The notes: generated by a model not told the origin, from the letters alone. A stretch of DNA of 64,000 nt from Leptolyngbyaceae cyanobacterium (GCA_965263355.1 CBDHHL010000032.1:2240001-2304000); one strand, 5' to 3'; numbered from the stretch's first letter, positions 13,594-64,000 are shown. Numbers and translations are program-made.

Positions 13594-15120
13594 ATGCTTT
13601 TGCAAAGATCTTGGGCTATGACTTCTCACAATATTATTTCTATAAAAGGTCTTAATCATTATTTTGGAGAGAATTCTCTTCGGAAGCAGATTCTTTTTAG
13701 TATTAATCTTGAGATTCGCCCTAAAGAATTTGTGATTTTAACTGGACCTTCAGGATCAGGAAAGAGCACATTATTAAGCCTGGTTGGATGTTTACGCTCT
13801 GTGCAATCGGGTAGTCTTAATGTCTTGGGTAAACAACTCAGGGGCGCAAAAAAACAAGATTTAATTCAAGTACGTCGTCAGTTTGGCTATATTACCCAGT
13901 CCAGTAATCTACTAGAATTTCTGACAGCACAACAGAATGTGCAAATGTCGCTGGAATTGCATTCAGAGTTTTCTGCTTCAGAGCGGCGTAATCGGGCAAG
14001 CGCTATTTTGGATTCTGTTGGATTAGGTGATTTTATCAATAGCTATCCCGATAATCTTTCCGGAGGACAGCGTCAGAGGGTAGCAATTGCTTGTGCTCTA
14101 GCTTCCAGGCCTAAATTGATCCTCGCTGATGAACCAACGGCTGCCTTGGATCGTAAATCGGGCCGGAATGTAGTTGCCTTAATGCATCGTCTCGCCAAGG
14201 AACATGGCAGTGCTGTTCTAATGGTGACCCACGATAATCGAATTCTCGATCTAGCCGATCGGATCATCAATGTTGAGGATGGCAAATTAGGATTAGCAGT
14301 GAGTCAAGAACTCGCGATCGCATTCCCTGGCCTGAATCCCTCAATTTTAGAGGACACCGAAACACAACCTACACTTTTGGCCTATGCTGCTGGCGAAGAC
14401 ATTGTGAAACAAGGTGATAGGGCTACGAAGTTTTATGTGTTACTCGAAGGTAAGGTTGATGTATTGATAGAAACGCCTGAGCAAGGCTTAAAGCGAGTTA
14501 GACAGATGACACGAGGAGAGTATTTTGGCGAAATTGGTTTATTGCAAGGTGGTAAACGCACTGCGACAGTCAGGGCTTCTCAAGACTCAGAAGCTAAAGT
14601 AATGGTAATCGATGAAGCACTTTTCTATATCCTCTTAGCAGATTCTGAGCTAACAAACCTGGATATTGCTCACAATCTTCATCAACGAATTATGACCAGT
14701 CATTTAGCACTGGCATTACCAAACCTGACGTCAGCTCGCCTCTCTGAGATTTTAGCTAAAGTAGACGTTATTCGTTATGGACCTAATTCTAAAATCATTC
14801 AAGCAGGTGATCCTGTCAATAAATTCTATTTAATCTACACTGGCAAAGCCTGTGTTTTCAAGATAGGAGAACACGGAGAAAAACAGCTCTTTCAAACTCT
14901 GCAGGCTGGAGATTTCTTTGGGGAAACAGAACTGATCAACTCAACTCCTTATCCTATGACCATTCAAGCGCATCCTGATAATGCTGTAGATGTCATCAGT
15001 CTTAACCAAGAAGATTTTCGTAGCCTTGTGATTGATACTAATGTTAGTCAAGATGAAGTGGCCACTGTTCTTCGTGATCGCTTAATGAGTCAAATTGATA
15101 AAACACTGGTATTAGATTAG
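13594..15120 (+). CDS. DevA-family ABC ATPase fused to two cyclic-nucleotide-binding domains
   Basis: GPSGSGKS, LSGGQRQR, ADEPT and VTHDNR, then GEYFGEIGLL..RTATV and GDFFGE. Confidence 0.88.
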   Translation: MLLQRSWAMTSHNIISIKGLNHYFGENSLRKQILFSINLEIRPKEFVILTGPSGSGKSTLLSLVGCLRSVQSGSLNVLGKQLRGAKKQDLIQVRRQFGYITQSSNLLEFLTAQQNVQMSLELHSEFSASERRNRASAILDSVGLGDFINSYPDNLSGGQRQRVAIACALASRPKLILADEPTAALDRKSGRNVVALMHRLAKEHGSAVLMVTHDNRILDLADRIINVEDGKLGLAVSQELAIAFPGLNPSILEDTETQPTLLAYAAGEDIVKQGDRATKFYVLLEGKVDVLIETPEQGLKRVRQMTRGEYFGEIGLLQGGKRTATVRASQDSEAKVMVIDEALFYILLADSELTNLDIAHNLHQRIMTSHLALALPNLTSARLSEILAKVDVIRYGPNSKIIQAGDPVNKFYLIYTGKACVFKIGEHGEKQLFQTLQAGDFFGETELINSTPYPMTIQAHPDNAVDVISLNQEDFRSLVIDTNVSQDEVATVLRDRLMSQIDKTLVLD

Positions 15121-15196
15121 TAGTGTAGATGCGAAAAACAGTCCATTAGCGGGAATACTGTAGTGGTCTCAAAAGCTAATCCGATAAATTTCTCGC

Positions 15197-16378
15197 GTGA
15201 ATATTAATCAGTTTCAACTAAAATCCAAGCCATGGATAGCTGTTCTGACAATAGCTACTGGTTTGATCATGGTTAATACTCTAGCAGCTGTTTACTTTTT
15301 TAAGTTTCAAGATAAGCCAGAACAAAATATTGGGTTAGCCACCTCAGAAAATGAACCCACGGTTACTACTATCAATGCTCTAGGTCGAATAGAGCCCCAA
15401 GGTGCCACTACAAACTTGTCGACTACTGGTCAAAGATTAGCCCAGGTACTTGTCAAAGAGGGTGACATTGTTCAAGCTGGGCAAGTGATTGCCATTGCAG
15501 ATAGCGTTCACATTCGTAAGGCAGCACTGGAGGAAGCCAATGCCAAAGTACAAACTGCTCAAGCTAATTTAACCAAGATACAGGCTGGGACTAAAGTAGC
15601 TGATATCAATGCCCAACGCAGTAAAGTAGCGATGTTAGAAGCTCAATGGGCAGGAGATATCGCCACACAAGAAACAAAAATTACTCAATTAGAAGTAGAG
15701 CTACGTAATGCAGCCGCAGAATACCAACGGCACCTAAATCTATATCAGAAAGGTGCGATCTCAGCCTCTGAGTTCGAGACTCAAAAGTTGACGATGGAGT
15801 CGCTACAAGAACAGGTACAAGGGGCTGAGGCAATGTTGGAAAAACTCAATAATACGGGACAAGCCCAAGTTCAAACCGAACGAGAAACCCTAAATAGTAT
15901 CTCCGAAGTTCGCTCGATAGATGTCGTTGAAGCTCAGGCCAGGGTCGCTGAAGCACTTGCATTACAGAGTAAGGCAGAAGCAGATTTAGACTTAGTCTAT
16001 GTGCGCTCTCCCATAGAGGGACAAATTTTAAATCTCCATGTCAAAGCAGGTGAAACGATAGGTTCTCGAGGAATTGCAGAAATTGGTAAAACTCAGCAAA
16101 TGTATGCAGTTGCTGAAATCTACGAAACGGATATTCGTCATATTCGGATTGGTCAGAAAGCAACGTTGACCAGTGAATTTGGTGGATTTATCGGTGAGTT
16201 GACAGGTACCGTCGATCAGATTGGTTTACAAATTGGCAAGCCTGGAACAGTTAACAATAATCCCAGTGCTGTTTCGGACGTAAGGGTCGTGGAAGTTAAA
16301 ATTCGCCTAAATCCTGAAGATAGCGATAGGGTTAAACATTTGAATAAATTGCAGGTTCGGGCATCAATTCAAATCTGA
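15197..16378 (+). CDS. DevB-family (HlyD-like) membrane fusion protein
   Basis: TM helix, ALGRIEP, long coiled coil, VRSPIEG, AEIYETD and RVVEVKIRL. Confidence 0.88.
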   Translation: MNINQFQLKSKPWIAVLTIATGLIMVNTLAAVYFFKFQDKPEQNIGLATSENEPTVTTINALGRIEPQGATTNLSTTGQRLAQVLVKEGDIVQAGQVIAIADSVHIRKAALEEANAKVQTAQANLTKIQAGTKVADINAQRSKVAMLEAQWAGDIATQETKITQLEVELRNAAAEYQRHLNLYQKGAISASEFETQKLTMESLQEQVQGAEAMLEKLNNTGQAQVQTERETLNSISEVRSIDVVEAQARVAEALALQSKAEADLDLVYVRSPIEGQILNLHVKAGETIGSRGIAEIGKTQQMYAVAEIYETDIRHIRIGQKATLTSEFGGFIGELTGTVDQIGLQIGKPGTVNNNPSAVSDVRVVEVKIRLNPEDSDRVKHLNKLQVRASIQI

Positions 16379-16803
16379 ACAGGTTACACTGTTGCTCAAC
16401 GTCCGAAATAACCCGCAGCAACAGCAACAGATTTAGTAGAATTTTAGTAAGATTACTGATGTTACTAGAAAATGTCAGCGTCAGCCTAAAAATACAATAA
16501 ATCAACAGGTTTAGTGAAAACACCGATCTTGTTGTAAATCTTCTCCTAAAACAACTAGAATTTGCAGCAAGAGATTGGTAAAATCACTGATTGTACTAAA
16601 AGCGGCATTTATCTTAAAGCACCTTTCAGCAAGGCATTTCAACTTTTTTCTCTTAGCTGCTACACTTTGTCGAAGGGTTCATCCTACACAAGATTTAGAT
16701 TATTCTAGATTTATGTGATGAAGCTGAAATCTGCCTGATTGTTTTTGGAACACGCTATAATTAATTAAATTATATTGTTACTGCTTAGGCAGCTTTAAAT
16801 CCT

Positions 16804-18627
16804 ATGGCGCTTTTTCCAAATGGTCATTCCTATCCATTGGAGGAGACTTCTTCTTTGGTGGACCTTTTACGCTATAGGGCTTGCTATCAGCCAAACCAAG
16901 TTGCCTATATCTCTTTACAAGATGGTGAAACCGAGTCTGGTCAACTTACCTATCAAGCATTAGATCAGCAAGCACGCGCAATTGCATCTCATTTACAAGC
17001 TTTAGGCGCAAACGGTTCACGAGTGCTGTTAAGCTATCCTCTTTCTGCAAGCCTGGAGTTCACCGCTGCTTTTTTTGGGTGTCTGTATGCTGGAGCAATT
17101 GCTGTGACAGCCTGGCCACCTCTCAACAAATCTTTATTATCTGAGCTGTTGTTTAAGGTATCGGATGCAGAGGTGACGTTTGCTCTCACCACTCGTGCAT
17201 TATTGTCTCGATTTCATCAACAGTTAACCTCAATGCCAAAATTGGCAGATGTGAAATGGGTAGCCACAGATGAAGTCAGCGGTTTGAACCTAGCTGCTAG
17301 CAATTGGCAGGAACCTCTTATTAAGAGCGCTTCATTGGCTTATTTGCAATATACGTCAGGATCCACTGGAAAACCTAAGGGAGCCATGATTACCCATGGT
17401 AATGTACTGGATAACCTGAATCTCATTGCCCATAGTTTTGATTATACATCGAACGACCGTGGGGTTTGTTGGTTGCCGCTTTATCATGACATGGGATTGG
17501 TTGGTGGTGTGATACAGCCCACCTATGTTGGTGGTACGGTAATCATGATGTCGCCAGTGGATTTTATTCTTAAACCTTATCGCTGGCTACAGGCAATTTC
17601 CCATTATCGAGCAACAACCAGTGGAGGACCTAACTTTGCCTATGAGTTATGTATTCGTAAAACCACTCCTGAGCAACGAGCCACCCTTGATCTGAGTTGC
17701 TGGGAAGTGGCAGCTAATGGGGCAGAGCCTGTTCTGGCTGAAACCTTAGAGCTATTTTGCAATACCTTCTCTCCCTATGGATTTAGGAGGAAAGCATTTT
17801 GTCCGGCCTATGGCATGGCAGAAACAACTGTCATGATATCCCTGTGCGCAAGAGCTACAGAGCCAACAGTTCAAACGGTTCATCGACAGGCCTTAGAACA
17901 AAATCAGGTTGAGTCAGCTAAAGACCAACGGAAATCACGGCAACGTGCCCTTGTGGGATGTGGTCAGATTGGACAAAACCATACCCTGGTTATTGCAGAT
18001 CCGGTTACCTCAAGACGGTGCTTGCCTAATCAGGTCGGTGAGATTTGGATATCGGGTCCAAGCATTGCCCAAGGCTATTGGAATCGTCCAGACGAAACTG
18101 AAAAAACATTTAAAGCTTATTTGACAGATACAGGAGAAGGACCGTTTTTGAAAACGGGAGACATGGGATTTTTGCAAGGGGATGAGTTATTTATTGCCGG
18201 ACGACAGAAAGATGTGATTATTCTTTGGGGACGAAACCACTATCCTCATCATCTTGAAATGACTGTTGAACAAAGCCATCCAGCATTGCGACCTGGAGGA
18301 GGAGCGGTCTTTGGTTTGGAGATAAACGGTGAAGAACAATTGGTCGTTGCCCAGGAAGTTGAGTCAAGATATCTGCCATCTCTAGATACGGATGCTGTTA
18401 TAAAAGCTATCCGGCAAGCATTAGTTTCTCATCATATGGTAGAGACCTATGCCATTGTCTTGTTACGACCTGGAAGCGTGCCAAAGACCCCAACCGGTAA
18501 AACTCAACGGTCTGCCTGTCGTACTCAATTTTTAGAAGGACGTCTAAATGTTATTGCCCAGTGGCTCAATAGCCAGCCTGCAAATGGAATTGTGCTTGAT
18601 GCTGCATTGGTTGCTGTAAATACATAG
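16804..18627 (+). CDS. Fatty acyl-AMP ligase (FAAL 1)
   Basis: YTSGSTGKPKG, WLPLYHDMGL, GGPNFAY, YGMAE, TGDMGF and GRNHYP. Confidence 0.92.
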   Translation: MALFPNGHSYPLEETSSLVDLLRYRACYQPNQVAYISLQDGETESGQLTYQALDQQARAIASHLQALGANGSRVLLSYPLSASLEFTAAFFGCLYAGAIAVTAWPPLNKSLLSELLFKVSDAEVTFALTTRALLSRFHQQLTSMPKLADVKWVATDEVSGLNLAASNWQEPLIKSASLAYLQYTSGSTGKPKGAMITHGNVLDNLNLIAHSFDYTSNDRGVCWLPLYHDMGLVGGVIQPTYVGGTVIMMSPVDFILKPYRWLQAISHYRATTSGGPNFAYELCIRKTTPEQRATLDLSCWEVAANGAEPVLAETLELFCNTFSPYGFRRKAFCPAYGMAETTVMISLCARATEPTVQTVHRQALEQNQVESAKDQRKSRQRALVGCGQIGQNHTLVIADPVTSRRCLPNQVGEIWISGPSIAQGYWNRPDETEKTFKAYLTDTGEGPFLKTGDMGFLQGDELFIAGRQKDVIILWGRNHYPHHLEMTVEQSHPALRPGGGAVFGLEINGEEQLVVAQEVESRYLPSLDTDAVIKAIRQALVSHHMVETYAIVLLRPGSVPKTPTGKTQRSACRTQFLEGRLNVIAQWLNSQPANGIVLDAALVAVNT

Positions 18628-18743: not shown

Positions 18744-21700
18744 GTGCTTAATTCTAGTATAAATAATTTTATTGATTTGTTAGAGTTCAGGGCTGAGAGC
18801 TGCCCTGACAAAACTGTTTATACCTTTCTTAAAGATGGTGAAGTAGAGGATACTTCCCTAACCTACAAAAACTTAAATCAAAGGGCAAAAGCGATCGCAA
18901 CTCAGTTGCACTCTCACTGTTCAGTTGGGGATCGTGCTCTACTACTCTATCCAGCTGGATTAGACTTTATTGCTGCCTTTTTCGGTTGTCTGTATGCTGG
19001 TGTGATTGCCGTTCCGGTGTATCCTCCCCGTCGCAATCAGAGTTTATTGCGTTTGAAAACAATTGCTCAGGATTGTCAGGCAACAGTGGCTCTCACCACC
19101 GCTGCCACATTGGCAACAGTCAAACGCTGGTGGGATACCGATCCGATCTCGTCACAACTAAACTGGTTGGCAACCGATGCACTAGAAATCTGTTCTGGTT
19201 TAGATACCTATGCTCCAATAACCCCTGAGACCCTGGCATTTTTGCAGTACACATCTGGCTCCACTGGCACCCCTAAAGGAGTCATGGTTTCCCATGGAAA
19301 TCTGATTCAAAATTGTTCCATTATCTGTACTTGTTTTCAAAATAGATCTGAGCATGTCGGGGTGTCCTGGTTGCCGTTCCACCATGACATGGGTTTAATT
19401 GGTGGACTTTTAGAATCAATATACAGCGGCGGATCGATGATTCTAATGGCCCCTGCAGCCTTTCTCCAGAAACCAGTTCGTTGGTTAAAGGCAATCTCCC
19501 GATATCAGGCAGTTACAAGCGGTGGACCAAACTTTGCCTATGATCTTTGTACCCAGACAATTAAACCAGAACAACTAGACGATCTTGATCTACACAGTTG
19601 GACCCTCGCATTTACCGGTGCAGAACCTGTGCGGGTGGAAACTTTAGAACGATTTTCGCAAATATTTACTGGTTGTGGATTTCGTCGAAATGCCTTTTAT
19701 CCCTGCTATGGCATGGCCGAGACAACGTTATTAGTCACGGGGGGGACTCGGGCAGAGAAGCCAATTATTCATACCGTTGACCGAACTGCTTTAAAGCAAA
19801 ACCAGGTGGTTGAGAGTTCTTTGTCAGCGGAGGGCAAAACTCTGGTGAGCTGTGGTCGTAGTTGGCTGGATCAAAACGTGATTATTGTGGAGCCAGATTT
19901 ATTAACGCGTTGTGAACCAGACAAAATTGGCGAAATTTGGGTGGCTGGTGCCAGCGTTGCTTGCGGGTATTGGCAACAACCCGAACAAACTTACCAAACA
20001 TTTCAGGCCCATCTGGCAGACACCGGAGAAGGACCCTTTTTAAGAACAGGTGATTTAGGCTTTTTGCGAGATGGGGAACTGTTTGTAACCGGGCGACTTA
20101 AGGATGTGATGATTATCCGGGGACGCAACCATTATCCTCAGGATATTGAGCTAACGGTTGAGACTGCCCATGGTGCTTTACAAGCCAATGCAGGAGCCGC
20201 TTTTACGGTGGAACAATCAGCAGTGGAGCACCTGGTCATTGTGCAGGAGGTGAAGCGCTTACAGCTGCGTAATCTGCAGCCAGATGAGATTATCTGGGCC
20301 ATTCGTAAGGCTATTTCAGAACACCATGAACTCCAGGTATCTACAATTTGTTTACTTAAACCGGGTAGCTTGCCTAAAACATCGAGTGGGAAAGTACAAC
20401 GACAATTATGTCGAACTCGGTTTGAGACCAACAGCCTGGCGACGGTTGCCCAATGGAGCCGAGATGCTCTCTCAGAGACTGATGCTGTTACTAAGCAAGA
20501 GTTTTTAGATATCAGTGGATTACAGGGTTTGGAAAAAGTTCAGGCCCTGGAGACATGGTTGGTGAACCGGATTGCCCAACAAGCACAGATTTTGTCGGCA
20601 GAGGTTGATCGCCATTGCCCTTTAGTGAGTTACGGTCTAGATTCACTGCAAGTGATTGAGATGTCTACGGAGCTAGAGGCATTGCTCGGGCAGCCTGTGT
20701 CTCCGACGATTGTGTATGATTATCCCACCATCACAGCCCTGGCTCAGCAGTTAGGTCTGGGACCACAGATGGCAAATTTATCCAGTCCATCATTACCCCA
20801 TGGGAAACAAGTCAGGCATGGGGAGGAGATCGCAATTATTGGTCTGGGTTGTCGTTTTCCTGGGGCCAACACCCCTGATGCGTTTTGGCAACTTCTGCAT
20901 GAGGGTCGAGATGCGATCGCAGAAGTTCCCCTATCGCGATGGGATAGCAGTCACTTAGGCTCCCTCCTTACAGACCAGCCCATTGCTCATTGGGGCGGTT
21001 TTCTCCAGCACATTGATCAATTTGATCCTCAATTTTTTGGCATTTCTCCTCGAGAAGCCGCCAGTATGGACCCTCAGCAACGCCTACTACTGGAGGTATG
21101 CTGGGAAGCATTAGAAAATGCTGGACAGTCTCCAGAGCGATTGAGCGGTAGCCAGTCCGGTGTATTTTTGGGCATTAGCAACGGCGATTATTCTCGCTTG
21201 CAGAGCAATCACCTGAGTACAAATGTTTACTATGGCACGGGGAATGCCTTTAGTATTGCGGCTAACCGTCTGTCGTATCTGATGGATTGGCATGGCCCGA
21301 GTTGGGTGGTGGATACCGCTTGCTCATCTTCACTGGTGGCTGTTCATCAGGCTTGTCAGAGCTTGCAAGCGGGAGAATGCAATCTGGCAGTAGCTGGCGG
21401 AGTAAACCTGATATTAAGTCCGCAATTGACGGTGACCTTTTCCCAAGCGCAAATGATGGCCTTAGATGGACGCTGTAAGACCTTTGACGCCGATGCCGAT
21501 GGCTATGTACGGGGTGAAGGCTGTGGCTTAGTTGTCCTCAAGCGGTTATCGGAGGCTGTAGAAGCAGGCGATCAGATTTTGGCCGTCATTAAAGGGTCTG
21601 CTGTCAATCAAGATGGCCGTAGTAATGGATTGACTGCACCCAATGGCTTGGCTCAACAACAGGTCATTCGTCAGGCGTTAGAGAATGCTGGCATCAATGC

Positions 21701-30541: not shown

Positions 30542-30582
30542 CATTCTATTTCCCTTTACCCTATCAATTCTTTAAGTGAAAT

Positions 30583-47230: not shown

Positions 47231-47305
47231 TTTTATTCCTAATAAATGTACCTTGGTTGACCTGAAATTGCTATAAAGAGATGACATCCTCTTTGAGAGA
47301 AACTT

Positions 47306-48163
47306 TCAAAAAAAATGTAAAAAAACAAATATTATGCCTAGCAAAACTAAGAGAATTTCTACTTTAGGCATAGGTAATTTAAACCTAGCAATTAAATATA
47401 TATGCATCATTGCCATTCTGCCAAATTTACTTTTTTGGCATATCCTGTTTACATCGGTGATTGAATCTACACAGGATAAACTATCACAAGAAAATGTCTC
47501 ACTCAATGCATAAAGTCTTACCTTTTTTATATAAGCAATGGATGACAATAGCAAATCATCATTTGTTTTTATCCATAAACCATAATTTTCAATATAGTTT
47601 GACCATTCTGTTGAAGGGAGAAAAAAGGTGGCAGTGCACATAATCATGCAAGCTGCTTCCAAAACAGCAACTCTATTAAATTCTAAATTGTTATAAATTC
47701 CAGAACTGCGACTAAACCGAAATGGGAAATAGTAGAATTGAACTCCCTGAAAGCCCACCATAACATTGGTATGGCCTAAGGAAGAATAATTTCTATACAA
47801 AATGCTGACGCTATCTGATGAGTAGTAAGTGTCATCATCAAAAATAACAATTTGGTTTTTGTCTGAAAAAAGGTCTAGTTTTTTAAGCGTTTCATGGATG
47901 TAAATAAACTTTGTGGCTGGGCCTTGATCCTCAACTTCAAAGACTTTTAGGATGGGTTCAGACGTAATTTTTTTTGGTAATCCTGGATATGCTTGGTTTA
48001 GCCTTTTGTTAAACCTGGGATAAAACAGGAGAATCAAATTTACTAATTTAGTATTTTTGATGGATTCAATATTTTTTTCTAAATTTCCTACTCTTGTAGG
48101 TGTAGTTGTAAGCGATCCAATAATCATATTTGAATAAAGAGAATGAGCATTAGTATGCAACAA
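47306..48163 (-). CDS. Putative GT-A glycosyltransferase with C-terminal TM
   Basis: SLTTTPTR, DQGPATK, FDDD and NDD; visibly AT-rich. Confidence 0.55.
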   Translation of the reverse strand: MLHTNAHSLYSNMIIGSLTTTPTRVGNLEKNIESIKNTKLVNLILLFYPRFNKRLNQAYPGLPKKITSEPILKVFEVEDQGPATKFIYIHETLKKLDLFSDKNQIVIFDDDTYYSSDSVSILYRNYSSLGHTNVMVGFQGVQFYYFPFRFSRSSGIYNNLEFNRVAVLEAACMIMCTATFFLPSTEWSNYIENYGLWIKTNDDLLLSSIAYIKKVRLYALSETFSCDSLSCVDSITDVNRICQKSKFGRMAMMHIYLIARFKLPMPKVEILLVLLGIIFVFLHFF

Positions 48164-54193: not shown

Positions 54194-55123
54194 ATGAAAA
54201 AGTTTTACTCTCAGCCTATTTATATTGTTGGCTTACCACGCAGCGGTACTACCTGGCTTGCTTCTATTTTAAACACAGCCCAAGGTGTTAAATATTTCTA
54301 TGAACCATTTAATCCCCTAAGAGTCCCTGAAGCGTTACCTCATTTAATGAAATACTTGCGGGCAAATGATACTGACCCATCGTATAGCAGTTTTTGCCAA
54401 GCTGCTTTTTCTGGGCGATTAAAGAATCAGTTAGTTTATAAAAAAATGGCTAAACCCTATTGCCGATTTGGTAATGCTTTGCGATCGCTACCTGGGCGAG
54501 TCATGGTTAAAGACGTTCATTCTTTGATGTCTCTGGCTTGGATTCAGAAAACCATTCAACCGGTTATTTTAGTTGTTATTCGACATCCATGTGCAGTTGC
54601 AGCCAGCTGGTTTCGGTATTTTAACTTAGACGTTGAGTTAAGAGGATTACACAGTATATTTAACCAGCCTTCCCTTATGGAGGACCATTTATACCCCTAT
54701 GAACATCTTTTTTATGAAACAGTAGACTTTTGGCAAAAAATTGCCGTGTATTGGGGAGCCGTATACCATGTGATTTTTCAACAAAGTAAACGATATCCCC
54801 ACTGGAAAATTATTAGGCATGAAGACTTGTGTCATAACCCAACTCAAGCTTTTAAGGAACTCTTTTCCCAACTAAACCTGTGTTGGACTCATCAGACGGA
54901 TAGTCTATTAAAACTATCGACCTCTCAAGATAGCCATAGACCCTATATCCCTTTCAGAGTTTCTGCAGCAGAGCCAATGAAATGGAAAAAGGAGCTTGCG
55001 CCCTGGCAAATTGAGAAGATCAAGCATTTTACCCAACCTTTTGAAATCCCCTACTACTCAGATTTTAAAAGATTAGAATTTGACTCTAAAATGGAGACAA
55101 ATTTTCGTATTGATAAAACGTGA
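54194..55123 (+). CDS. Sulfotransferase
   Basis: GLPRSGTTW, YEPF, RHPCAVAAS and HEDL. Confidence 0.85.
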   Translation: MKKFYSQPIYIVGLPRSGTTWLASILNTAQGVKYFYEPFNPLRVPEALPHLMKYLRANDTDPSYSSFCQAAFSGRLKNQLVYKKMAKPYCRFGNALRSLPGRVMVKDVHSLMSLAWIQKTIQPVILVVIRHPCAVAASWFRYFNLDVELRGLHSIFNQPSLMEDHLYPYEHLFYETVDFWQKIAVYWGAVYHVIFQQSKRYPHWKIIRHEDLCHNPTQAFKELFSQLNLCWTHQTDSLLKLSTSQDSHRPYIPFRVSAAEPMKWKKELAPWQIEKIKHFTQPFEIPYYSDFKRLEFDSKMETNFRIDKT

Positions 55124-55181: not shown

Positions 55182-56348
55182 TTGGTCTCAAAACCTGACC
55201 TGCAATCTCAAATACTATACCTTTTGGGCAAAGTAAGAAATCGCTTTTTCAAAGACTTAATCAATAGAGGGGCCTATAAGTATTCCATGGATTTAACCTT
55301 AAGGCGAAGAGATTATTTTTGGATCGATTGTATTCGGGGCATTGCTACATTTATGGTAGTTTTTTTACACTCGGCGGCACCTCTCCTATATAAATATAAG
55401 GATCTTCCCCTTGATTATTGGATGGCAGGTAATATTTATGACTCTCTTGTAAGAGTTTGTGTACCATTATTCTTTATGATTTCTGGTGCTCTGTTACTCT
55501 GTAAAGATGAACCAATTTTACTTTTCTTTTCCAAAAGGTTGAAAAGGATATTAATTCCATCTATGTTTTGGTCTTTATTTTTTGTGTTCTGGAAAGCCTT
55601 TTATGGAAAAAATTTGTTAATTACACCATTCTCCTTTTACAGTTTGCTATGGAGGCCAAGTTACTATCATCTTTGGTTTATTTATGTGCTGTTAGGCATA
55701 TATCTGTATATGCCAATCATTCGAAAAGTTATCAAAATCTATGATGATTCTATATTAATTTATTATGTTTTTGTTTGGTTTCTAGTAGCTTCAGTGCTTT
55801 TCTTTAGTGATAAGTTTGGAGATATGAGTATTCCAATCTATTTTCGACCGTTTTCTGGATATTTAGGTTATTTGGTTCTGGGATATTTACTAAGTAAGCG
55901 AGACTATCAAAAAAGACATGGCATTTGCGCCTTTCTTATATTTATCATCTTCACTTTTTTAACTGCTTATGGCACCTATCTTTTGACCGTAAATAATGAA
56001 GGTATTTTTGTCGGTTATTTGTATGGCTACTTAACGCCGAATGTTATTTTAGCTAGTATTTCCAGTTTTATTCTTATTAAGTACTTGGTGCATGTGACTA
56101 GGCTTGCACACAAAGCTTTTTTAGTCGTCTTAATAAAATCCATAAGTGATTGTAGTTTTGGTATATATTTTTTACATACTGTTTTTCTACGTTTGCTACA
56201 AGCAGGCGATCTTGGTTTTACACTATCTGCGTTTATAAGTCATCCTATGTATTCTGTGCCATTAACAGCAATAATTACATTTGTACTTTCCTATTTTTTG
56301 GTATTGCTTTTGTGTCAAGTTCCTACAGTACGAAGAGTTGTATCCTAA
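55182..56348 (+). CDS. Acyltransferase-3 family O-acetyltransferase (WecH/YiaH-like)
   Basis: IDCIRG..VVFLH, VPLFFMISG, YHLWF and SFGIYFLH. An internal ATG near 55287 is the likelier start. Confidence 0.85.
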   Translation: MVSKPDLQSQILYLLGKVRNRFFKDLINRGAYKYSMDLTLRRRDYFWIDCIRGIATFMVVFLHSAAPLLYKYKDLPLDYWMAGNIYDSLVRVCVPLFFMISGALLLCKDEPILLFFSKRLKRILIPSMFWSLFFVFWKAFYGKNLLITPFSFYSLLWRPSYYHLWFIYVLLGIYLYMPIIRKVIKIYDDSILIYYVFVWFLVASVLFFSDKFGDMSIPIYFRPFSGYLGYLVLGYLLSKRDYQKRHGICAFLIFIIFTFLTAYGTYLLTVNNEGIFVGYLYGYLTPNVILASISSFILIKYLVHVTRLAHKAFLVVLIKSISDCSFGIYFLHTVFLRLLQAGDLGFTLSAFISHPMYSVPLTAIITFVLSYFLVLLLCQVPTVRRVVS

Positions 56349-56416: not shown

Positions 56417-57505
56417 ATGATGCTTGGGGTTAGTGTTGTTATTTGTTGCCATAATAGTGCCGATACACTGGCGGAAACCTTACGATATCTTGCTGCTCAA
56501 TCCATTGCAGACAATATTCCTTGGGAAGTCATTATCATTGATAATGCATCAACGGATCAGACTGTCCAAGTTGCCTTAGACGCTTGGCCACAACAATACT
56601 CAACCCATTTAAGAATTGTTCAGGAACCTAAACTGGGTTTAATTTATGCTCGTTATCGAGGTTTGGCTGAGGCTCGGTATGAGGTGATTAGCTTCATTGA
56701 TGATGATAATTGGGTATGTTCTAGCTGGATACAAACAGTCTCAGAGATTATGGGTGGCCATCCCAGGGTGGGTGCCTGTGGTGGGCAGAATATTCCGGAA
56801 TTTGCTACTCCTGAGCCGGAATGGTTTGGCCTGAGTGGCAAAAGCTATGCCGTAGGCAGTCAAGGTCCAGCGTCGGGGGGGGATATCACCTGGTCAAGGG
56901 CTCGTTTGGTGGGGGCAGGGCTCACTATTCGTAAAGCCGCATGGCAGCAACTAGTTGACAATGGATTTCAATCTATGTTGGTAGGGTGTCAGGGAAAAAC
57001 CTTGAACCGGGGTGAGGATACTGAGCTTTGTTTTGCTTTGGTATTGGCTGGTTGGCATCTGTGGTACGAGCCTCGTTTAGTCTTGCGGCATTTTTTAACA
57101 GCGGATCGATTGCACTGGCATTATCTTCGTAAATTACGCCGTGGTGGTGGTCAAGCAACGGTGGGGTTCGATCCCTATAGATTGGTATTGGAGTCATGCA
57201 ATAGTAACCACTTCATTGATTTCTGGTGGCCTGCTTCGTTCACATCCACTAAGCACCCCTATGGACAACCTAAGGTATCCTGGTGGCGACAACAATTCCT
57301 GGCGATCATTAAGGAGCTACTGTGCCATCCATGGGCACTGATTCAATCGCTGACGTTGTTGGCAGAAGGTAATGCTAATGTCCTGGATGTGGAGATGCGC
57401 ATAGGTCGGTTAATCGAATTGATTAAAACTCGTAACACTTATGATGTGAGTATTCGATCTCTGTGCAAAGTGGCTTGGAGAAAACAATATGAAACGAAAT
57501 CTTGA
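56417..57505 (+). CDS. GT2-family glycosyltransferase
   Basis: VSVVICCHN, IDNASTD, FIDDD and GED. Confidence 0.88.
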   Translation: MMLGVSVVICCHNSADTLAETLRYLAAQSIADNIPWEVIIIDNASTDQTVQVALDAWPQQYSTHLRIVQEPKLGLIYARYRGLAEARYEVISFIDDDNWVCSSWIQTVSEIMGGHPRVGACGGQNIPEFATPEPEWFGLSGKSYAVGSQGPASGGDITWSRARLVGAGLTIRKAAWQQLVDNGFQSMLVGCQGKTLNRGEDTELCFALVLAGWHLWYEPRLVLRHFLTADRLHWHYLRKLRRGGGQATVGFDPYRLVLESCNSNHFIDFWWPASFTSTKHPYGQPKVSWWRQQFLAIIKELLCHPWALIQSLTLLAEGNANVLDVEMRIGRLIELIKTRNTYDVSIRSLCKVAWRKQYETKS

Positions 57506-57599: not shown

Positions 57600-59450
57600 C
57601 TATGGCTGAGGGCTGATCTTAAACTGCATCTGGTGATATTTCCAGAGATGCCCACGGACTTGAATTAAATCTTGGTACCGACCCTGTTCAACAATGCGCC
57701 CTTTTTCTAACACGACAACTTTGTCTGCATTGACTATGGTGGATAATCGGTGTGCGATCGCAACCACGGTTCGCCCCTTAGCCAACTGATTCAACGACGT
57801 TTGAATTTTCCGCTCTGTAGCTGAATCCAGAGCACTGGTGGCCTCATCTAAGATCAAGATTTCCGGATTCCGTAGTAATGCTCTGGCAATAGCAATTCGT
57901 TGTCGCTGTCCCCCCGATAAACGCACCCCCCGCTCACCCAGTATGGTCTCAAATCCCTCAGGCAACTCCAAAATAAATTCCAGGGCGTTCGCCTGCTGTG
58001 CAGCTCTCCAGATCTCATTATCGTCCACGCCTTCAAGGCCATAGGCAATATTAGCTCGGGCCGTATCATGAAAAATAAACGTATCTTGACTCACAATCGC
58101 CATTTTGTGACGCAGAGAATTAATTTTTAACGCTCGAATATCGATACCATCAATCAAAATACGCCCCTGGGTCGGATCATAAAAGCGAGGTAACAAATCC
58201 ACCAGGGTTGTCTTTCCGGCACCCGAGGCCCCTACTAATGCCATCATTTTTCCCTGCCCAATTGATAACGTAATATCTTGCAGAACAGGCTCATTGGGGG
58301 TGTACGCAAAATCCACTGATTCAAAATCAATGGATCGCTGTAATCCTACAAATGGAGTGTTTCCGTCATGAAAATAGGGTTTGTCATCGCGCCTGAGCAA
58401 ATCGGTCACCGATTCCATAGCTCCCAAGGCAGCAACACAACTAATCCTCGTGTTATTCAGTGTGGATATCATTGGAATGGCTCGAATCAGTATGAATAAA
58501 AATGTTAGGAATTCCGATTCCATGACATGGTCTGTGGAAATCAATTTTCCATAGACTACAACAACCATACTGACTAACAGCGTCACTCCAAGTCCTTCCA
58601 TGATGGGTTGTACCAGGGCAAGAAGCCTGTGAACCCTGATCTGAGTTCTATAAACTTGTTCAGTGATTGTAGAATATTTTTGACGCTCAAACTGTTGGGC
58701 ACCAGCCCCCTGTACAGTCCGAATCCCATTGAGAAAAGCCAGTAAATTAACAGTAAATCTCCTATTTGCCTTGGGGATTGCAAGCCCTGCTTGTTGTGCC
58801 TTGTGAGTTAACCCTGTTAAGCTCATAGAGAGCAAGCTAAAGGAAATTACCGCTGTAAAAAACAGTGGCCATGACAACAGCAGCATGGCCACCAGATAGA
58901 CCAGTAGCTTAGCAAGTTGAATAATGGCCCCTAATAAATTACTAAACGTATTTTGGACCTGAGTAACCTCACTCCTGAGAGTACTCACAATTGTCCCAGG
59001 ATTAGTTGTGGTGTAAAAGCTTAGCCTGAAGCTTTCTAGCTGATCGAATATCCTATAGCGGAGGCGATCACCTAACTTGCAAGCAGCTATTTTACTGTAG
59101 ACATTACTTGAATAGTCAACTCCACTCCGCAACCAAACAATTACTAATAGTAGCCACGACAGACGATAAGTCCGTTGGGTTACCGTTGCCTGGGTGGCCA
59201 GAAAAACAGTATCAATCCACTGCAGACCTGTTTGAATAGGAGGTTGATCTGGTGTGGTTAATCCCTGTAAAAAGCAAACAATGAAGCCAACGGTGATGCC
59301 TTCCAAACAGGCACCTATAAGCGCAAATAAAATCGCTAAAACAATTGTCCAACGAAAATGTTTCAGCTCCTTAAAGATGAGGTGATAATCGCGCCGAAAG
59401 TGAGCTGCTTTTAAGACTCTGTGCAGAATGTAATTCAGCTTACGTTTCAT
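57600..59450 (-). CDS. HepA/MsbA-like ABC exporter (fused TMD and NBD)
   Basis: Multiple TM helices; GASGAGKT, LSGGQRQR, LDEATSALD and IAHRLST. Confidence 0.9.
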   Translation of the reverse strand: MKRKLNYILHRVLKAAHFRRDYHLIFKELKHFRWTIVLAILFALIGACLEGITVGFIVCFLQGLTTPDQPPIQTGLQWIDTVFLATQATVTQRTYRLSWLLLVIVWLRSGVDYSSNVYSKIAACKLGDRLRYRIFDQLESFRLSFYTTTNPGTIVSTLRSEVTQVQNTFSNLLGAIIQLAKLLVYLVAMLLLSWPLFFTAVISFSLLSMSLTGLTHKAQQAGLAIPKANRRFTVNLLAFLNGIRTVQGAGAQQFERQKYSTITEQVYRTQIRVHRLLALVQPIMEGLGVTLLVSMVVVVYGKLISTDHVMESEFLTFLFILIRAIPMISTLNNTRISCVAALGAMESVTDLLRRDDKPYFHDGNTPFVGLQRSIDFESVDFAYTPNEPVLQDITLSIGQGKMMALVGASGAGKTTLVDLLPRFYDPTQGRILIDGIDIRALKINSLRHKMAIVSQDTFIFHDTARANIAYGLEGVDDNEIWRAAQQANALEFILELPEGFETILGERGVRLSGGQRQRIAIARALLRNPEILILDEATSALDSATERKIQTSLNQLAKGRTVVAIAHRLSTIVNADKVVVLEKGRIVEQGRYQDLIQVRGHLWKYHQMQFKISPQP

Positions 59451-59542: not shown

Positions 59543-60397
59543 TTAAAGCCCTACCCTATCCAGCTTCCATCGTGAGATATCAAATTCATAGTTCACTTCT
59601 AACCTACGCAAATCATCACGGAGTTCACGGTAAACAAAGTTTCGCTGTTCTGATGAAAGTTTTACATGGTGGGTTATGCTATGTCCTAGCTTACGTTTTA
59701 GACTATCTCTAAGTGTTTCTGACAGCAATCCAGTCATTGGTTGGATAAAGGGCCATAGTTTACCTTCTATGACTTTGCCCTTAGTCGGATGGTAGTTCCT
59801 AGCAATATCTTTGAATATATAGGATGTGTCTAATGCTAACCATCGACATACATGCTCTAAAAGCTGTAGAGGATTATCTCTTAAATCATTAAAGTTCAAC
59901 AGAATAATTTGATCTTTAGAAAATCTCTGACAATAATTGTCTAACTGCTTTGCATATCTAGATATTTCTATCAGTTTTTGATCGATGCCGCTGTTGAGAA
60001 GTTTAAGGTCTTTTCCCCAACGGGTACTCAATGCATGGGTGTAATGGGACTCAATTCGTTCGATAGGATCCCGCATGATGTATATAAATCTAAAATCATA
60101 AGTAAACTGAGTTTGGAATTGAAAAATGCGTTCGACTACAGTTGAGGTATGCATTTTTGTATAGCTTGTGGAGCCTTCCAATGCAATTCTATGAATACTG
60201 GAATCGTAGCTCCAGAGTTGTTTATACCAGTCAGCCCCTTTGCTATAAGTCCCGTCTTCTGAGAAGAAATGAGGTTCTTTTTTGGGTTCGCAAGGGCATA
60301 TTTGAGGATGTTCTGCTAGATATTTAAAGAGGCTGGTGGTGCCACTTTTCATGGCTCCGATGATGAGTGCAAATTTGTTGATCATTAAACTGCTCAA
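59543..60397 (-). CDS. Sulfotransferase (heparan-sulfate ST-like motifs)
   Basis: IGAMKSGTTSL, KEPHFF and RDPIERIES. Likely ATG start at 60385. Confidence 0.85.
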   Translation of the reverse strand: MSSLMINKFALIIGAMKSGTTSLFKYLAEHPQICPCEPKKEPHFFSEDGTYSKGADWYKQLWSYDSSIHRIALEGSTSYTKMHTSTVVERIFQFQTQFTYDFRFIYIMRDPIERIESHYTHALSTRWGKDLKLLNSGIDQKLIEISRYAKQLDNYCQRFSKDQIILLNFNDLRDNPLQLLEHVCRWLALDTSYIFKDIARNYHPTKGKVIEGKLWPFIQPMTGLLSETLRDSLKRKLGHSITHHVKLSSEQRNFVYRELRDDLRRLEVNYEFDISRWKLDRVGL

Positions 60398-60408: not shown

Positions 60409-61443
60409 ATGAATAGCGCCTGGCAAATAACGTGTAACTTGCGTATCCGACAATTAGCTAGCCAATTAATCAATAATCATCCGTGGAAGTACCGTATTCG
60501 ACCTATCACCTGGTGGAACGTTCCCAGCTGGGTAAAACAAACTATTAAACAAGATAGACGATTTTACCGAATCCGACCAAGACCCCCTTCAGTATCGCGA
60601 GTTCGCCATTTTATTTCACCCAATCTGTCAAACCCAATTTTTATTGTTGGTGCTCCTCGTTCTGGAACAACCTTTCTAGGACAGTGTATATCTGAATTAC
60701 CTCAGCTTAGCTACCATTTTGAACCGGTGTTAACTAAGGCCGCTGTTCGCTATATTTACACCCAGCAATGGTCGCCTAAAAAAGCTCAGCACTTTTATCG
60801 TCAGGTTTACACTGGGCTTATGCGTTTGTATCTAGATGGCGATCTCTGCTTTTGTGAAAAAACTCCTCGGAATAGCTTTATTCTTCCATTTCTCTATCAA
60901 ACCTTTCCAGATGCACGATTTGTTCACATTATTAGGGATGGGCGAGATGTTGCACTTTCACTATCGCAGCAACCCTGGTATCGTAACGATCGGCAAGGAT
61001 CAAGCGAGAAGGAGCCTGGGGGGTATCCATTTGGTCCGTCTGCACGCTTTTGGGTTGAACCTAATCGTACCCGAGAGTTTGAAACAACTAACGATCTGCA
61101 TCGCTGTATTTGGTTATGGCGTTGTTATGTAGAAAGCGCTAGGTCAGGAAGTGGGGCAATTCCCCCATCACAATACTATGAGCTTAGGTATGAAGACCTG
61201 GTGCAAGAGCCTGGTCGAGAAGCAACACGATTATTAGATTTTCTCAACATTACGGTTGAATCCTCTCAGATAGCCTTTAAACAAGCCGTTGTTACCAAGG
61301 CGCGACAAAACTCTATTGGGCAGTGGCGGCAAAATATCTCATCGCGCACTCTCAATCAAATGTATGCTGAGTCGGGGCAATTGCTTGAGTGCTTAGGCTA
61401 TACTGCGGTGGATATCAATGAACCTCTGATCCCTGATTCCTGA
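60409..61443 (+). CDS. Sulfotransferase
   Basis: GAPRSGTT, EKTP, RDGRDVALS and RYEDLV. Confidence 0.85.
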   Translation: MNSAWQITCNLRIRQLASQLINNHPWKYRIRPITWWNVPSWVKQTIKQDRRFYRIRPRPPSVSRVRHFISPNLSNPIFIVGAPRSGTTFLGQCISELPQLSYHFEPVLTKAAVRYIYTQQWSPKKAQHFYRQVYTGLMRLYLDGDLCFCEKTPRNSFILPFLYQTFPDARFVHIIRDGRDVALSLSQQPWYRNDRQGSSEKEPGGYPFGPSARFWVEPNRTREFETTNDLHRCIWLWRCYVESARSGSGAIPPSQYYELRYEDLVQEPGREATRLLDFLNITVESSQIAFKQAVVTKARQNSIGQWRQNISSRTLNQMYAESGQLLECLGYTAVDINEPLIPDS

Positions 61444-61487: not shown

Positions 61488-62618
61488 TTAGCTCGCGGAA
61501 AGTACAAATTTATAGACCTCAATTGTCTTTTGAGTAATATAGTCCCAGGTCCATAATTGAGCCGTTTCAAAATTATGTTGACCCATTTTGGGTAAGTGCT
61601 CTCGTTGTGCGATCGCAGATTTAATAGCATTAACCAAACCATCCTGAGTTGCAGGATCATATAAAAAAGCCCCTGCTGGATCCAAAATATCCTTAAAAAA
61701 GCCTGTGTTAGGAGCAATACAGGCTTTTTTGAATGACATAGCCAGGACGGCCACACCGGATGCTGTAAATAGCGTATAGGGTAAAACCACTACATCGCTG
61801 GCATTCATATAAACCTGAATCTTCTCCTCAGGAATAGGGGCGGGAGGATCAACTAGTGAAACATTGGGGCAATTGGCTGCTTTTTCAAGAATTGTCTCAC
61901 GCATATCATCAGGCAGTTGACCCGTGATAATCAATTGGGTCATCCCATGGTCTACACCCTTAAATGCTTCAATGGCTTCTACTACGCCTTTACTACGATG
62001 AATACTGCCAAAATGTAAAAAAACAATAGATTCAGGCTCAATTCCTAATTGCTGTCTAGCAACGTCACGTTCAATTTGGTTTGGATAGGTTTCGATGTAA
62101 TTGTGATGGGGGATCGTAAAAATTTTCTTTGTATAGTTCTGGCCCAAAGCTGCCGTTTTTATGATTGTGTTTTTGGATGAGTCACAGTGGGTGATCATGG
62201 CCCCTAAAATCGCGCCTAAAATTTTAGTTTGAAGGGGAGATGGGGTGTAGTTGCCACTAGCCGTTGTCTTATCAATCCATTCGTGAACTGTCCAGATGAT
62301 TTTCACACCAACTAAACGTAAAAGTAAGACCTGACAAGTAAATATTGAAAATCTAAACCATCCATGAATGACGTTGGACGCTAAAAAGTGCTGCACAAAT
62401 TGAATATGCAGAATGGTAATATCCTTAAATAGAAAATTGTGGAAAAAGATCAAGGAAGGTGCATGGATGCTAGCCTTCAGACCCTTGGCATTTAAGTTTG
62501 CAATCAGGCAATCTTGATAGGGATTAAATTCCCAAGACGTTGACAGGAAAATTACTCGTATTGCCTGATTAAGGTTAGTACTTTGAGCAAAAAAATACTT
62601 TAAACATGAGAAAAGCAC
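61488..62618 (-). CDS. GT4-family glycosyltransferase
   Basis: NPY, WTVHE, FGSIHRSKG and DVVVLPY..SG. Confidence 0.85.
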   Translation of the reverse strand: MLFSCLKYFFAQSTNLNQAIRVIFLSTSWEFNPYQDCLIANLNAKGLKASIHAPSLIFFHNFLFKDITILHIQFVQHFLASNVIHGWFRFSIFTCQVLLLRLVGVKIIWTVHEWIDKTTASGNYTPSPLQTKILGAILGAMITHCDSSKNTIIKTAALGQNYTKKIFTIPHHNYIETYPNQIERDVARQQLGIEPESIVFLHFGSIHRSKGVVEAIEAFKGVDHGMTQLIITGQLPDDMRETILEKAANCPNVSLVDPPAPIPEEKIQVYMNASDVVVLPYTLFTASGVAVLAMSFKKACIAPNTGFFKDILDPAGAFLYDPATQDGLVNAIKSAIAQREHLPKMGQHNFETAQLWTWDYITQKTIEVYKFVLSAS

Positions 62619-62680
62619 AAATCAGAATCCTATTGCCTATTGTTAAATAAGTCTTTCTATAAAAATAAACTAATAAAAAG

Positions 62681-63391
62681 TTACCGCTTAAAAATTTCTT
62701 TTAAGCTAGTGTAGACGCTGCCAATTAAGTGTTTTGGAGGCACGTTTTCGTATTTCCATATAGTACTCTCAAAGTCACTCAAAACAGCAACATTAGGATA
62801 CATGCCGTAAGAAATGAGGTTGGTCAGATATGTTCTCCCCGTTAAACCATCGGCAGCCCATCTGATCGGATAGGCATTATTCAATAGTTTAGTTGCACCT
62901 TTGCGAGTGACTAGATACAAGCAAGCCCGATTGGCATATTCTTGATGCCTCGAAAATCTATAACCATCAAAGACAAATGGCCCAAACGGCTGTTGTCTGA
63001 CATCAGTTAGAAAATTTATAAATTCATAATCCTTGGGGAATTTCGATTTTCTTTCCAAAATCTTAAATAGCAATGGGTTAATTTCAACATCATCTTCTAA
63101 CACTAGAACTTCTTCGATACCCTCTTTAACAATTCTTTCCCAAATTCTGGCATGGGAAAGGGCACACCCTATTTCACCAAATCCTAGCCTTCTTCCACAG
63201 GAGTATATGGCAGCTTGTTGGGAATAGTGACTTAAATCTTGTTTACTTAGGGTCTTACCATCAACACCTGCGATGATTTCATAGGTGACATTGAGGACAT
63301 TTAACTGTTCTTGCATAAATGCGCGTCTTTCATGATCACGTTGCAGATTCAACACCCACACCGGGATTTGGTTTATGGCTTGTATCATCAT
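62681..63391 (-). CDS. GT25-family glycosyltransferase
   Basis: VLNL..RR, GVDG, GEIGCALSH and LEDD. Confidence 0.88.
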   Translation of the reverse strand: MMIQAINQIPVWVLNLQRDHERRAFMQEQLNVLNVTYEIIAGVDGKTLSKQDLSHYSQQAAIYSCGRRLGFGEIGCALSHARIWERIVKEGIEEVLVLEDDVEINPLLFKILERKSKFPKDYEFINFLTDVRQQPFGPFVFDGYRFSRHQEYANRACLYLVTRKGATKLLNNAYPIRWAADGLTGRTYLTNLISYGMYPNVAVLSDFESTIWKYENVPPKHLIGSVYTSLKEIFKR

Positions 63392-63404
63392 TTATCACCT
63401 GTGC

Positions 63405-64000
63405 CTAACGTAACGTAGTTGGATGGAATCCCAAGCTAAAACCCGTGAATTTACGGGAGGAACATGGGTTTTCAAACCTATCTATATAGTCGGTATACCC
63501 AAACGTATCAATATCTTTTTGATATCGCTCAGCCACCCAGGCCCAGGTTTGATAGTCATAATAGTCCAGGTAAGAGACTGGAGGCTTTTTTTTTCTAAGA
63601 CTCAGTAACCGCTTAAACCGCATCACTAACGACCTGGTCTCTGGCAATCTTTTACCTGAAGACTGGTTGACGTGGGATAAGTCTGGTAGTTGCCTATTGA
63701 TACGGTTACGTATTAGCTCGAAATCATGTTCTAATCGCTCAAAACGCCCAATAAAGTCAACCAGACAGGTTTTGTCGGCATCAAACAGATACTCATACTG
63801 TGGCATAACGTGACGCCAAACATCTGTCCAGCCTGGTTTTGGAAATGCTTTCTTCAGCCAGTATTTAAATGTATATTTGTTGTAATGCCCTCGCCAATTG
63901 TATTCAGAAACTAATCGTTCCCATGGATTCCGTACAAAGGAAAATTTGAAATACTTTGTAAATTCCTGGGGACTAATGTACCCATATGAAAGATATTCTT
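63405..64000 (-). CDS. Sulfotransferase family 2 protein; starts beyond the right edge of the window
   Basis: The frame of ORF 63405..63806 stays open to the edge: KYFKFSFVRNPWERLVSEY...RHVMPQYEYL...DFIGRFE. Confidence 0.85.
   Translation of the reverse strand, partial: EYLSYGYISPQEFTKYFKFSFVRNPWERLVSEYNWRGHYNKYTFKYWLKKAFPKPGWTDVWRHVMPQYEYLFDADKTCLVDFIGRFERLEHDFELIRNRINRQLPDLSHVNQSSGKRLPETRSLVMRFKRLLSLRKKKPPVSYLDYYDYQTWAWVAERYQKDIDTFGYTDYIDRFENPCSSRKFTGFSLGFHPTTLR

Follow-up and report, generated by a model that had tools for sequence, protein, structure and literature searches.

A candidate cyanobacterial pathway to an inositol-phospho-sphingolipid, predicted from a conserved gene set in a Leptolyngbyaceae genome

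Inositol-phosphate sphingolipids are characteristic of plants and fungi and of certain gut bacteria. Here we describe a locus in a 64,000-nucleotide stretch of DNA from a Leptolyngbyaceae cyanobacterium (GCA_965263355.1, CBDHHL010000032.1:2240001-2304000; hereafter the window) for which a sequence-only reading had proposed a lipid of this kind, and the genes that this reading had listed at 13594-64000 were all borne out by open frames and family matches. The locus comprises a core (16.8-42 kb) and a 22 kb tail of glycosyltransferase and sulfotransferase genes (42-64 kb). Its acyl assembly genes encode three fatty acyl-AMP ligase (FAAL) domains, a polyketide synthase (PKS), an acyl-CoA/acyl carrier protein (ACP) dehydrogenase (ACAD), two membrane desaturases together with a CarF/TMEM189-like desaturase, and an ACP. 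Gene orientations are mixed across the locus, which is not one operon. The genes up to the end of the core are as follows.

13594..15120, plus: DevA-family ABC ATPase with two cNMP-binding domains (TIGR02982 341 bits, cut-off 296; Pfam)
15197..16378, plus: DevB membrane-fusion protein (TIGR02971 above cut-off)
16804..18627, plus: FAAL-like ligase of the stand-alone 'W clade' (Trp475), a candidate for N-acylation (own clade, support 0.97)
18744..27500, plus: FAAL-ACP-KS-AT-DH-ER-KR-ACP fully reducing PKS, no release domain (Pfam; catalytic motifs)
27589..28698, plus: inositol-3-phosphate synthase, Ino1/MIPS (PF01658; TIGR03450 443 bits, below cut-off 638)
28766..30541, plus: ACP-loading FAAL (groups with FAALs preceding ACP-AOS in relatives)
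30583..31281, minus: CarF/TMEM189-like lipid desaturase, strain-specific (PF10520)
31299..33092, plus: ACAD (Pfam)
33162..34127, plus: membrane desaturase 1, FAAL/ACP-cassette type (PF00487)
34168..35160, plus: membrane desaturase 2, FAAL/ACP-cassette type (identity to cassette genes of loci L273/L274)
35233..35679, plus: stand-alone ACP (PF00550)
35732..37066, plus: alpha-oxoamine synthase (AOS), probable serine palmitoyltransferase (SPT) of SgaB/RkpG type, PLP Lys293
37319..38344, plus: UDP-glucose 4-epimerase GalE, inside the core (TIGR01179 436 bits, cut-off 262)
38357..39238, plus: sulfotransferase 1, inside the core (PF13469)
39338..39892, minus: putative CarS-like CTP:lipid-phosphate cytidylyltransferase (PF01864 40 bits, cut-off 22)
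39914..41245, plus: sphingosine-kinase-like lipid kinase (human SPHK1 match)
41252..41953 (likely start ATG 41896), minus: eukaryote-type phosphatidylinositol (PI) synthase (PIS)-like CDP-alcohol phosphotransferase (nearest named relatives; fold)

The core genes co-occur across cyanobacteria far beyond chance. In a phylum sample of 381 genomes, centred on G004, which was picked because it bears the kinase, the AOS (scored as present at E <= 1e-100) was found in 24 genomes (~6%) and the kinase in five (~1%). The CarS-like gene was found in exactly the same five genomes as the kinase (5/5, against 0/376 of the others), all among the 24 with the AOS, and four of them also carry the PIS-like gene. 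A single sequence recovered no loci and an alignment did; using 16 of the 19 cyanobacterial-type loci from the alignment-based search added 15 genomes, giving a kinase set of 20. Within it, the AOS, the CarS-like gene and Ino1 are each present in 19 genomes, and a 3-ketosphinganine reductase (KDSR)-like short-chain dehydrogenase/reductase (SDR), often unlinked, is present in all 20. Failure of the genes to be conserved together in relatives would have spoken against the sequence-only reading; each core gene was found in 19-20 of the 20. As controls we used 17 of the 19 genomes with the AOS only, the two weakest being left out. Ino1 is absent from all 17, and the two of 241 phylum genomes that have it are both kinase carriers; the KDSR-like SDR occurs in 11 of the 17 and in none of seven AOS-negative genomes. 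Nominal p-values for co-occurrence range from 1e-4 to 1e-11 and are inflated by relatedness. Carriers include Acaryochloris, Pleurocapsa/Myxosarcina/Xenococcaceae, Zarconia and an Oscillatoriaceae genome, and in Acaryochloris marina MBIC11017 every conserved step of the core is represented, by a homologue or by a stand-in.

The strongest sign of what the head-group genes do comes from the transferase. Twelve of the 20 kinase genomes carry the PIS-like gene and seven a second, Acaryochloris-type gene, closest to archaetidylinositol-phosphate synthase (AIPS), DIPPS and PIPS; none has both and one has neither. Two unrelated inositol-type transferases in one slot suggest that the slot joins inositol to the product of the kinase and the CarS-like enzyme. 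Both types are nearest to inositol-accepting families. The best NCBIfam match of the AIPS-like gene is AIPS (E 5e-34, below cut-off), while the PIS-like protein has the CDP-alcohol transferase motif and fold, a weak likeness to Bacteroides BT1523 (E 2e-4) and, among ten relatives looked up of 150 listed, three clusters named PI synthase (Komagataella, Naegleria and Andalucia; 41-43%), one unannotated amoebozoan protein and six nameless ones. Its genomic context suggests a donor other than CDP-diacylglycerol. In Acaryochloris a histidine phosphatase lies between the AOS and the SDR, which fits the need of a phosphate-bearing inositol head; IMPase-family genes, present in 3/3 genomes and also in 14/14 controls, are uninformative. 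A PIS relative of 410 residues (P0242) proved to be a tandem duplicate and no PIS-CarS fusion, and the radical-SAM gene after the Acaryochloris transferase encodes lipoyl synthase.

The kinase is much closer to human SPHK1 (E 2e-47) than to AGK (8e-19) or bacterial DgkB (3e-11). Its D189, S270 and D280 align with SPHK1 D81, S168 and D178 and are invariant in 32/32 aligned relatives. D81 and S168 are assigned to the sphingosine head group in PMC6148460, and D178 is described as anchoring the ligand in PMC8560647. On plasmids the kinase has distant matches only. A full-length relative (P0097, 44%) is named from the purple sulfur bacterium Thiorhodovibrio winogradskyi. The modelled CarS-like protein (pLDDT 83) has archaeal CarS 5GUF as its top fold match (probability 0.98, TM 0.53, with a weak E of 0.39) and scores far under the archaeal cut-off of NF003114. 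Neither it nor the PIS-like protein has a sequence match in the PDB.

On the side of the long-chain base, the AOS finds SPT as its best PDB match (E 1e-68). It is 55.7% identical to the AOS of a Pseudomonas PKS-AOS-SDR capsule locus (L204) and 48.7% to that of a Sinorhizobium locus (L202), and only ~40% to the second AOS that the cyanobacterial genomes carry. The Sinorhizobium locus is of the rkp-1 type. Gene order and locus-tag spacing in L204 match those given for sgaA, sgaB and the SDR of Pseudomonas fluorescens MYb115, where SgaA/SgaB/SgaC form a PKS-derived sphingolipid pathway and SgaB, supplied by the PKS, has been proven to be an SPT specific for serine (PMC12134224). By these affinities the AOS is probably a serine palmitoyltransferase of the SgaB/RkpG type. 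Relatives contain ACP-AOS, FAAL-ACP-AOS and PKS-AOS fusions, which indicates that the AOS takes acyl-ACP. As for the reductase, the best single-domain PDB match of the KDSR-like SDR is TSC10. The gene that follows the AOS in the window, a true GalE (TIGR01179 above cut-off), was rejected as the ketosphinganine reductase.

Among the acyl supply genes, the catalytic motifs are present in the FAAL-ACP-KS-AT-DH-ER-KR-ACP protein. This reducing, mono-modular PKS without a thioesterase carries an extra FAAL-ACP and shares the locus with the AOS, 8 kb away; its KS domain is 49% identical to the PKS of L204. A 57% relative of the ACAD sits between a FAAL and an ACP-AOS in L171, and the counterpart of the stand-alone ACP is either fused to the AOS or immediately before it. 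Desaturase 1 has its closest relatives (43-46%) in the FAAL-desaturase cassettes L273 and L274, and desaturase 2 is 44-52% identical to genes of the same cassettes as against 32-38% to other desaturases. One such cassette (L273:7396-13664), with a FAAL, four tandem desaturases and an ACP, may direct polyene or polyyne synthesis.

The FAAL-like ligase at 16804 falls in its own clade of stand-alone FAALs (support 0.97), in which Trp occupies the residue-475 position in 17/18 distinct members, against 0/17 others, and the aspartate of the following 'QD' is lost in most. A DNA pattern for this W motif matched 28/31 genomes with the KDSR-like SDR and 0/13 without it, and a reversed control matched none; the pattern was drawn from some of the tested genomes, so that what counts is its failure to match genomes without the reductase, six of them AOS-positive. 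Of its 35 matches 30 became loci, and all 30 are stand-alone FAALs without an ACP. A carrier-less acyl-adenylating enzyme confined to genomes able to make sphinganine is a reasonable candidate for N-acylation, and we propose the W-clade FAAL for that role; it may instead just load a different ACP.

In relatives the core genes are mostly scattered, and they are regrouped in differing orders. L170 holds the kinase, CarS-like gene, GT4, Stealth, LicD, SDR, FAAL-ACP-AOS fusion, a stand-alone W-FAAL and Ino1 within 12.5 kb; L171 holds a W-FAAL, fatty-acid hydroxylase, FAAL, ACAD, ACP, AOS, SDR and CarS-like gene. Ino1, W-FAAL and the CarS-like gene lie together in 7/20 loci as well as in L170. The CarS-like gene adjoins the kinase, divergently, in L001, L012, L014 and L016, and the second transferase type is near the pair in three of these four and in L011.

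The wider family of cyanobacterial FAAL/PKS-ACP-AOS loci (L170-L196, L203), one of them on a Planktothrix agardhii plasmid, lacks the inositol module and varies in its tailoring genes: OlsC/LpxO-like hydroxylases, fatty-acid hydroxylase, Rieske oxygenase, B12 radical-SAM, GT39/PMT, PagL-like, GH116 and sulfotransferase. This suggests several sphingolipid types in cyanobacteria. Three loci (L178, L179 and L180) pair FAAL(-PKS)-AOS with a methyltransferase and DevB/DevC in genomes without the KDSR-like SDR or a W-clade FAAL, and their product is probably a different amino-ketone. A B12-binding radical-SAM/DUF4070 gene, possibly a lipid methylase and not present in the window, lies beside the AOS in some genomes and beside the CarS-like gene or W-FAAL in others (L014:7662-9272, L175-L177, L181, L282).

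The sequence-only reading had drawn a route from acyl-ACP and an amino acid through a long-chain base, its phosphate and a CDP form to an inositol lipid. Enzyme affinities and co-conservation back that route, each step of which we infer from homology and co-occurrence. The FAAL at 28766 would load a fatty acid onto the ACP, where the ACAD and two desaturases would modify it, and the reducing PKS would supply a second or longer acyl chain. The AOS would join acyl-ACP to an amino acid, L-serine being the likeliest, and a TSC10-like reductase encoded beyond the window would yield the long-chain base, to be phosphorylated at C1 by the SPHK1-like kinase. At some point in this sequence, and as its weakest step, the W-clade FAAL would probably add the N-acyl chain. 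The CarS-like enzyme would turn the lipid phosphate into its CDP form, from which the PIS-like enzyme would displace CMP with myo-inositol made by Ino1 together with a housekeeping phosphatase; the same slot would be filled in Acaryochloris-type genomes by an AIPS-like enzyme, with inositol phosphate and the histidine phosphatase. We think it reasonably likely that cyanobacteria have, in this core, a genuine and conserved route to an inositol-phospho-sphingolipid, probably one not described before.

Several observations weigh against this pathway. Many of the kinase carriers are closely related, which makes the counts non-independent. There are exceptions, most of them in draft genomes: G358 lacks Ino1, G392 lacks the AOS, G005 lacks both transferases, G106 and G396 have stops within the PIS match, and G395 lacks the CarS-like gene and has a split kinase frame. 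(The G395 record, the source of locus L017, is labelled Candidatus Gracilibacteria yet has cyanobacterial-type genes.) The AOS falls under the cut-off of every NCBIfam SPT model, its top score being for BioF (366, cut-off 426), and the six of 17 AOS-only genomes without the reductase imply that this AOS family also serves other products. The link between L204 and SgaAB comes from gene order and locus-tag spacing, not from the sequence of SgaB. The window contains no homologue of the KDSR-like SDR, no Pfam match to a GNAT/bCerS-type ceramide synthase and no known ceramide synthase. Finally, 137 cyanobacterial loci (1.72 Mb, consisting of partly overlapping flanks only) hold no relative that reaches 40% identity with 60% coverage for sulfotransferase 1 or for any of the 17 genes at 42114-64000. 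The frames of this region are:

42114..43169, plus: GT2 glycosyltransferase (PF00535)
43225..44295, minus: GT10 alpha-1,3-fucosyltransferase-like (PF00852, PF18025)
44267..45046, plus: glycosyltransferase-like frame, GT34 Atlas lead only (no Pfam/NCBIfam match)
45057..45854, plus: GT25 glycosyltransferase (PF01755)
45851..47230, plus: GT4 glycosyltransferase (PF00534)
47306..48163, minus: frame without family match, possibly GT-A fold
48574..50667, plus: AT3-SGNH acyltransferase (PF01757+PF19040)
50864..52816, minus: FG-GAP/ASPIC-UnbV protein (family match)
53013..54101, minus: GT61 glycosyltransferase (PF04577)
54194..55123, plus: sulfotransferase 2 (family match)
55182..56348, plus: AT3 acyltransferase (family match)
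56417..57505, plus: GT2 glycosyltransferase (family match)
57600..59450, minus: HepA-family ABC exporter (NF045513 860 bits, cut-off 725)
59543..60397, minus: sulfotransferase 3 (family match)
60409..61443, plus: sulfotransferase 4 (family match)
61488..62618, minus: GT4 glycosyltransferase (family match)
62681..63391, minus: GT25 glycosyltransferase (family match)
63405..64000, minus: sulfotransferase 5, 5' end beyond the window (PF03567)

The locus thus has eight glycosyltransferases by Pfam and two frames without a family match (44267-45046 and 47306-48163, the latter glycosyltransferase-like by motif), two AT3 acyltransferases and five sulfotransferases, the fifth cut by the window end; it probably continues beyond 64000. 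The region 30001-50000, with the junction of core and tail inside it, is a single contig without joints in two of three runs, both from one sample that may be the window's source.

Whether the tail belongs to the core lipid is the question on which an alternative does best. The region at 42-64 kb could be an unrelated sulfated exopolysaccharide or lipopolysaccharide island, and we put this only just short of an even chance; it would qualify the decoration step and not the core. The lack of close tail relatives in any of the 137 loci favours it, as do the GC content (39.5% in the tail, 43.4% in the core and 47.0% upstream), the mixed orientations and an exporter of the generic HepA family. Against it, GalE and sulfotransferase 1 are nested between the AOS and the CarS-like gene, relatives also carry variable decorating genes inside the core (GT4, Stealth and LicD in L170; GT4 in L219, L232 and L233), and capsule genes surround the PKS-AOS-SDR loci of Sinorhizobium and Pseudomonas, which makes the lipid a possible anchor for the glycan. 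The GT4 nested in the core of L219 has no specific likeness to PimA or PimB. That the tail acts on the core lipid, with strain-specific glycosyl-, sulfo- and acyltransferases decorating the inositol for export, is a possibility that we hold tentatively and somewhat below even, and a glycan like that of glycosyl-inositol-phospho-ceramides (GIPCs) is unproven. The glycosylation, sulfation and export of the sequence-only reading gain no support from conservation. Of its two export systems the HepA-type exporter stands; the other amounts to DevA and DevB, as a DevC query found no permease in the window. A DevA-cNMP-binding fusion like that at 13594-15120 also occurs in L183, near an AOS.

A second alternative would keep the head-group genes in ordinary PI metabolism: the CarS-like enzyme would be a CDP-diacylglycerol synthase, the PIS-like enzyme would make PI, inositol-ceramide would arise by AUR1/BT_1522-type head-group transfer, and the kinase would serve turnover or signalling. 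Eukaryotic PIS uses CDP-diacylglycerol, as textbooks have it, and Bacteroides makes its inositol-phospho-dihydroceramide (PI-DHC) via the diacylglycerol form (PI-DAG) and an AUR1-like enzyme (PMC9246714). The CarS-like gene, however, tracks the kinase exactly and often adjoins it, although cyanobacteria already make CDP-diacylglycerol for phosphatidylglycerol. No AUR1/BT_1522-like inositol-phosphoceramide (IPC) synthase is found among the gene families of the window, nor an AUR1/PAP2-like gene among annotated neighbours, a comparison that included no genome-wide search. We consider this alternative improbable.

Still less probable is a lipid of the ether or another long-chain alcohol type, a plasmanyl or plasmenyl inositol made by the logic of alkylglycerol kinase, CarS and CarF with the AOS arm separate: CarS and AIPS do act on archaeal ether lipids and the window has a CarF-like desaturase, but the kinase is much nearer SPHK1 than AGK, nearly all kinase genomes have the AOS and all have the KDSR-like gene, and the CarF-like gene is absent from all five kinase genomes compared. 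Equally remote is a diffusible amino-lipid exported by DevBCA with no tie to membrane sphingolipids, for although reductase-less FAAL-PKS-AOS loci with a methyltransferase and DevBCA exist (L178-L180), their genomes lack the kinase, CarS-like gene, Ino1 and W-FAAL, all four of which are in the window.

The inositol-phospho-sphingolipid pathway remains our preferred account of the core. Its most far-reaching form, in which several cyanobacterial lineages make true inositol-phosphoceramides along a route that no organism has been shown to use, with a FAAL-derived, ATP-dependent ceramide synthase, a CarS-family CDP-ceramide (or CDP-long-chain base) and PIS/AIPS inositol transfer, here giving a galactosylated, fucosylated and sulfated GIPC-like surface lipid, is unlikely. 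The locus unites genes that relatives keep dispersed, and each conserved step of the pathway can be named from it. If the pathway is real, it would involve a CDP-activated sphingoid intermediate, so far proposed only for Caulobacter, and possibly a new class of ceramide synthase. The core genes are present in cultured strains, among them A. marina MBIC11017 (AIPS type) and Pleurocapsa sp. CCALA 161 (PIS type). They bear on which organisms produce inositol sphingolipids in mats and in marine biofilms, and on bacterial genes that resemble eukaryotic PIS and sphingosine kinase, whichever the direction of transfer.

The rest of the window is unremarkable. Positions 1-13125 hold ordinary genes (TPR protein, DUF1574, N-acylglucosamine 2-epimerase, group 2 sigma factor, fmt, OmpA-domain protein, DUF4335, DUF3038 and RmuC); fmt is 58-63% identical to those of five relatives compared and close to none of them. 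DUF3038 and DUF4335, along with the DevA/DevB and HepA families, mark the window as cyanobacterial. Promoter and terminator counts were equal to or under shuffled levels.

Earlier work places this pathway among partial counterparts. For cyanobacteria, neither sphingolipid enzymes nor a genetic basis had been reported, and none were found in Nostoc punctiforme, according to Belton et al. 2022 (PMC8895605); the genus table of 6,101 clusters in PMC12134224 has no cyanobacterial genus. We found no report of the pathway in cyanobacteria in a literature in which subscription papers were thinly covered. CDP-ceramide, -sphingosine, -sphinganine and -dihydroceramide were not found there as terms, and the idea is present as 'NDP-activated ceramide' (PMC11324152). 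The statement of the sequence-only reading that no characterised cluster has this gene set holds for the whole set and not for its parts: the AOS/PKS/SDR arm has a precedent in Pseudomonas SgaAB (PMC12134224), and a Caulobacter trio has been described (PMC11324152).

Like SgaABC, the locus has a type I PKS of the reducing kind and an AOS probably of the SgaB subfamily (by identity to L204 and L202), with a eukaryote-like KDSR in relatives and a predicted reduction before any acylation. It differs in its FAAL loading, stand-alone ACP, ACAD and desaturases, in having no KDSR-like SDR in the window where SgaABC has one in the cluster, and in its predicted inositol head, made via the kinase, CarS-like and PIS-like enzymes, in place of phosphoglycerol (L204 has an LTA-synthase-family gene). 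Judged by these homologies, the arm that forms the base is an SgaAB variant fed by FAALs. The cpgA-D genes of Caulobacter crescentus likewise combine a lipid kinase, a CDP-diacylglycerol-synthase-like enzyme and a CDP-alcohol transferase (PMC11324152). There, however, the kinase acts on ceramide, the head is glycerate and the core is of the GNAT bCerS/CerR kind, none of which has a match in the window; NDP-activated ceramide is proposed, not shown, for CC_1161 (PMC11324152), and the only cytidylyltransferase assayed makes CDP-glycerate (PMC12275187). Bacteroides thetaiotaomicron BT_1522-1526 and eukaryotic IPC/GIPC synthesis share with the locus a MIPS, an inositol CDP-alcohol transferase and the predicted product class, but move phosphoinositol from PI to ceramide by an AUR1-like enzyme (PMC9246714). 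Archaeal CarS and archaetidylinositol-phosphate synthase share the logic of the head group, CTP activation by a CarS-fold enzyme followed by an inositol transferase, on an archaeol backbone there and a predicted sphingoid backbone here.

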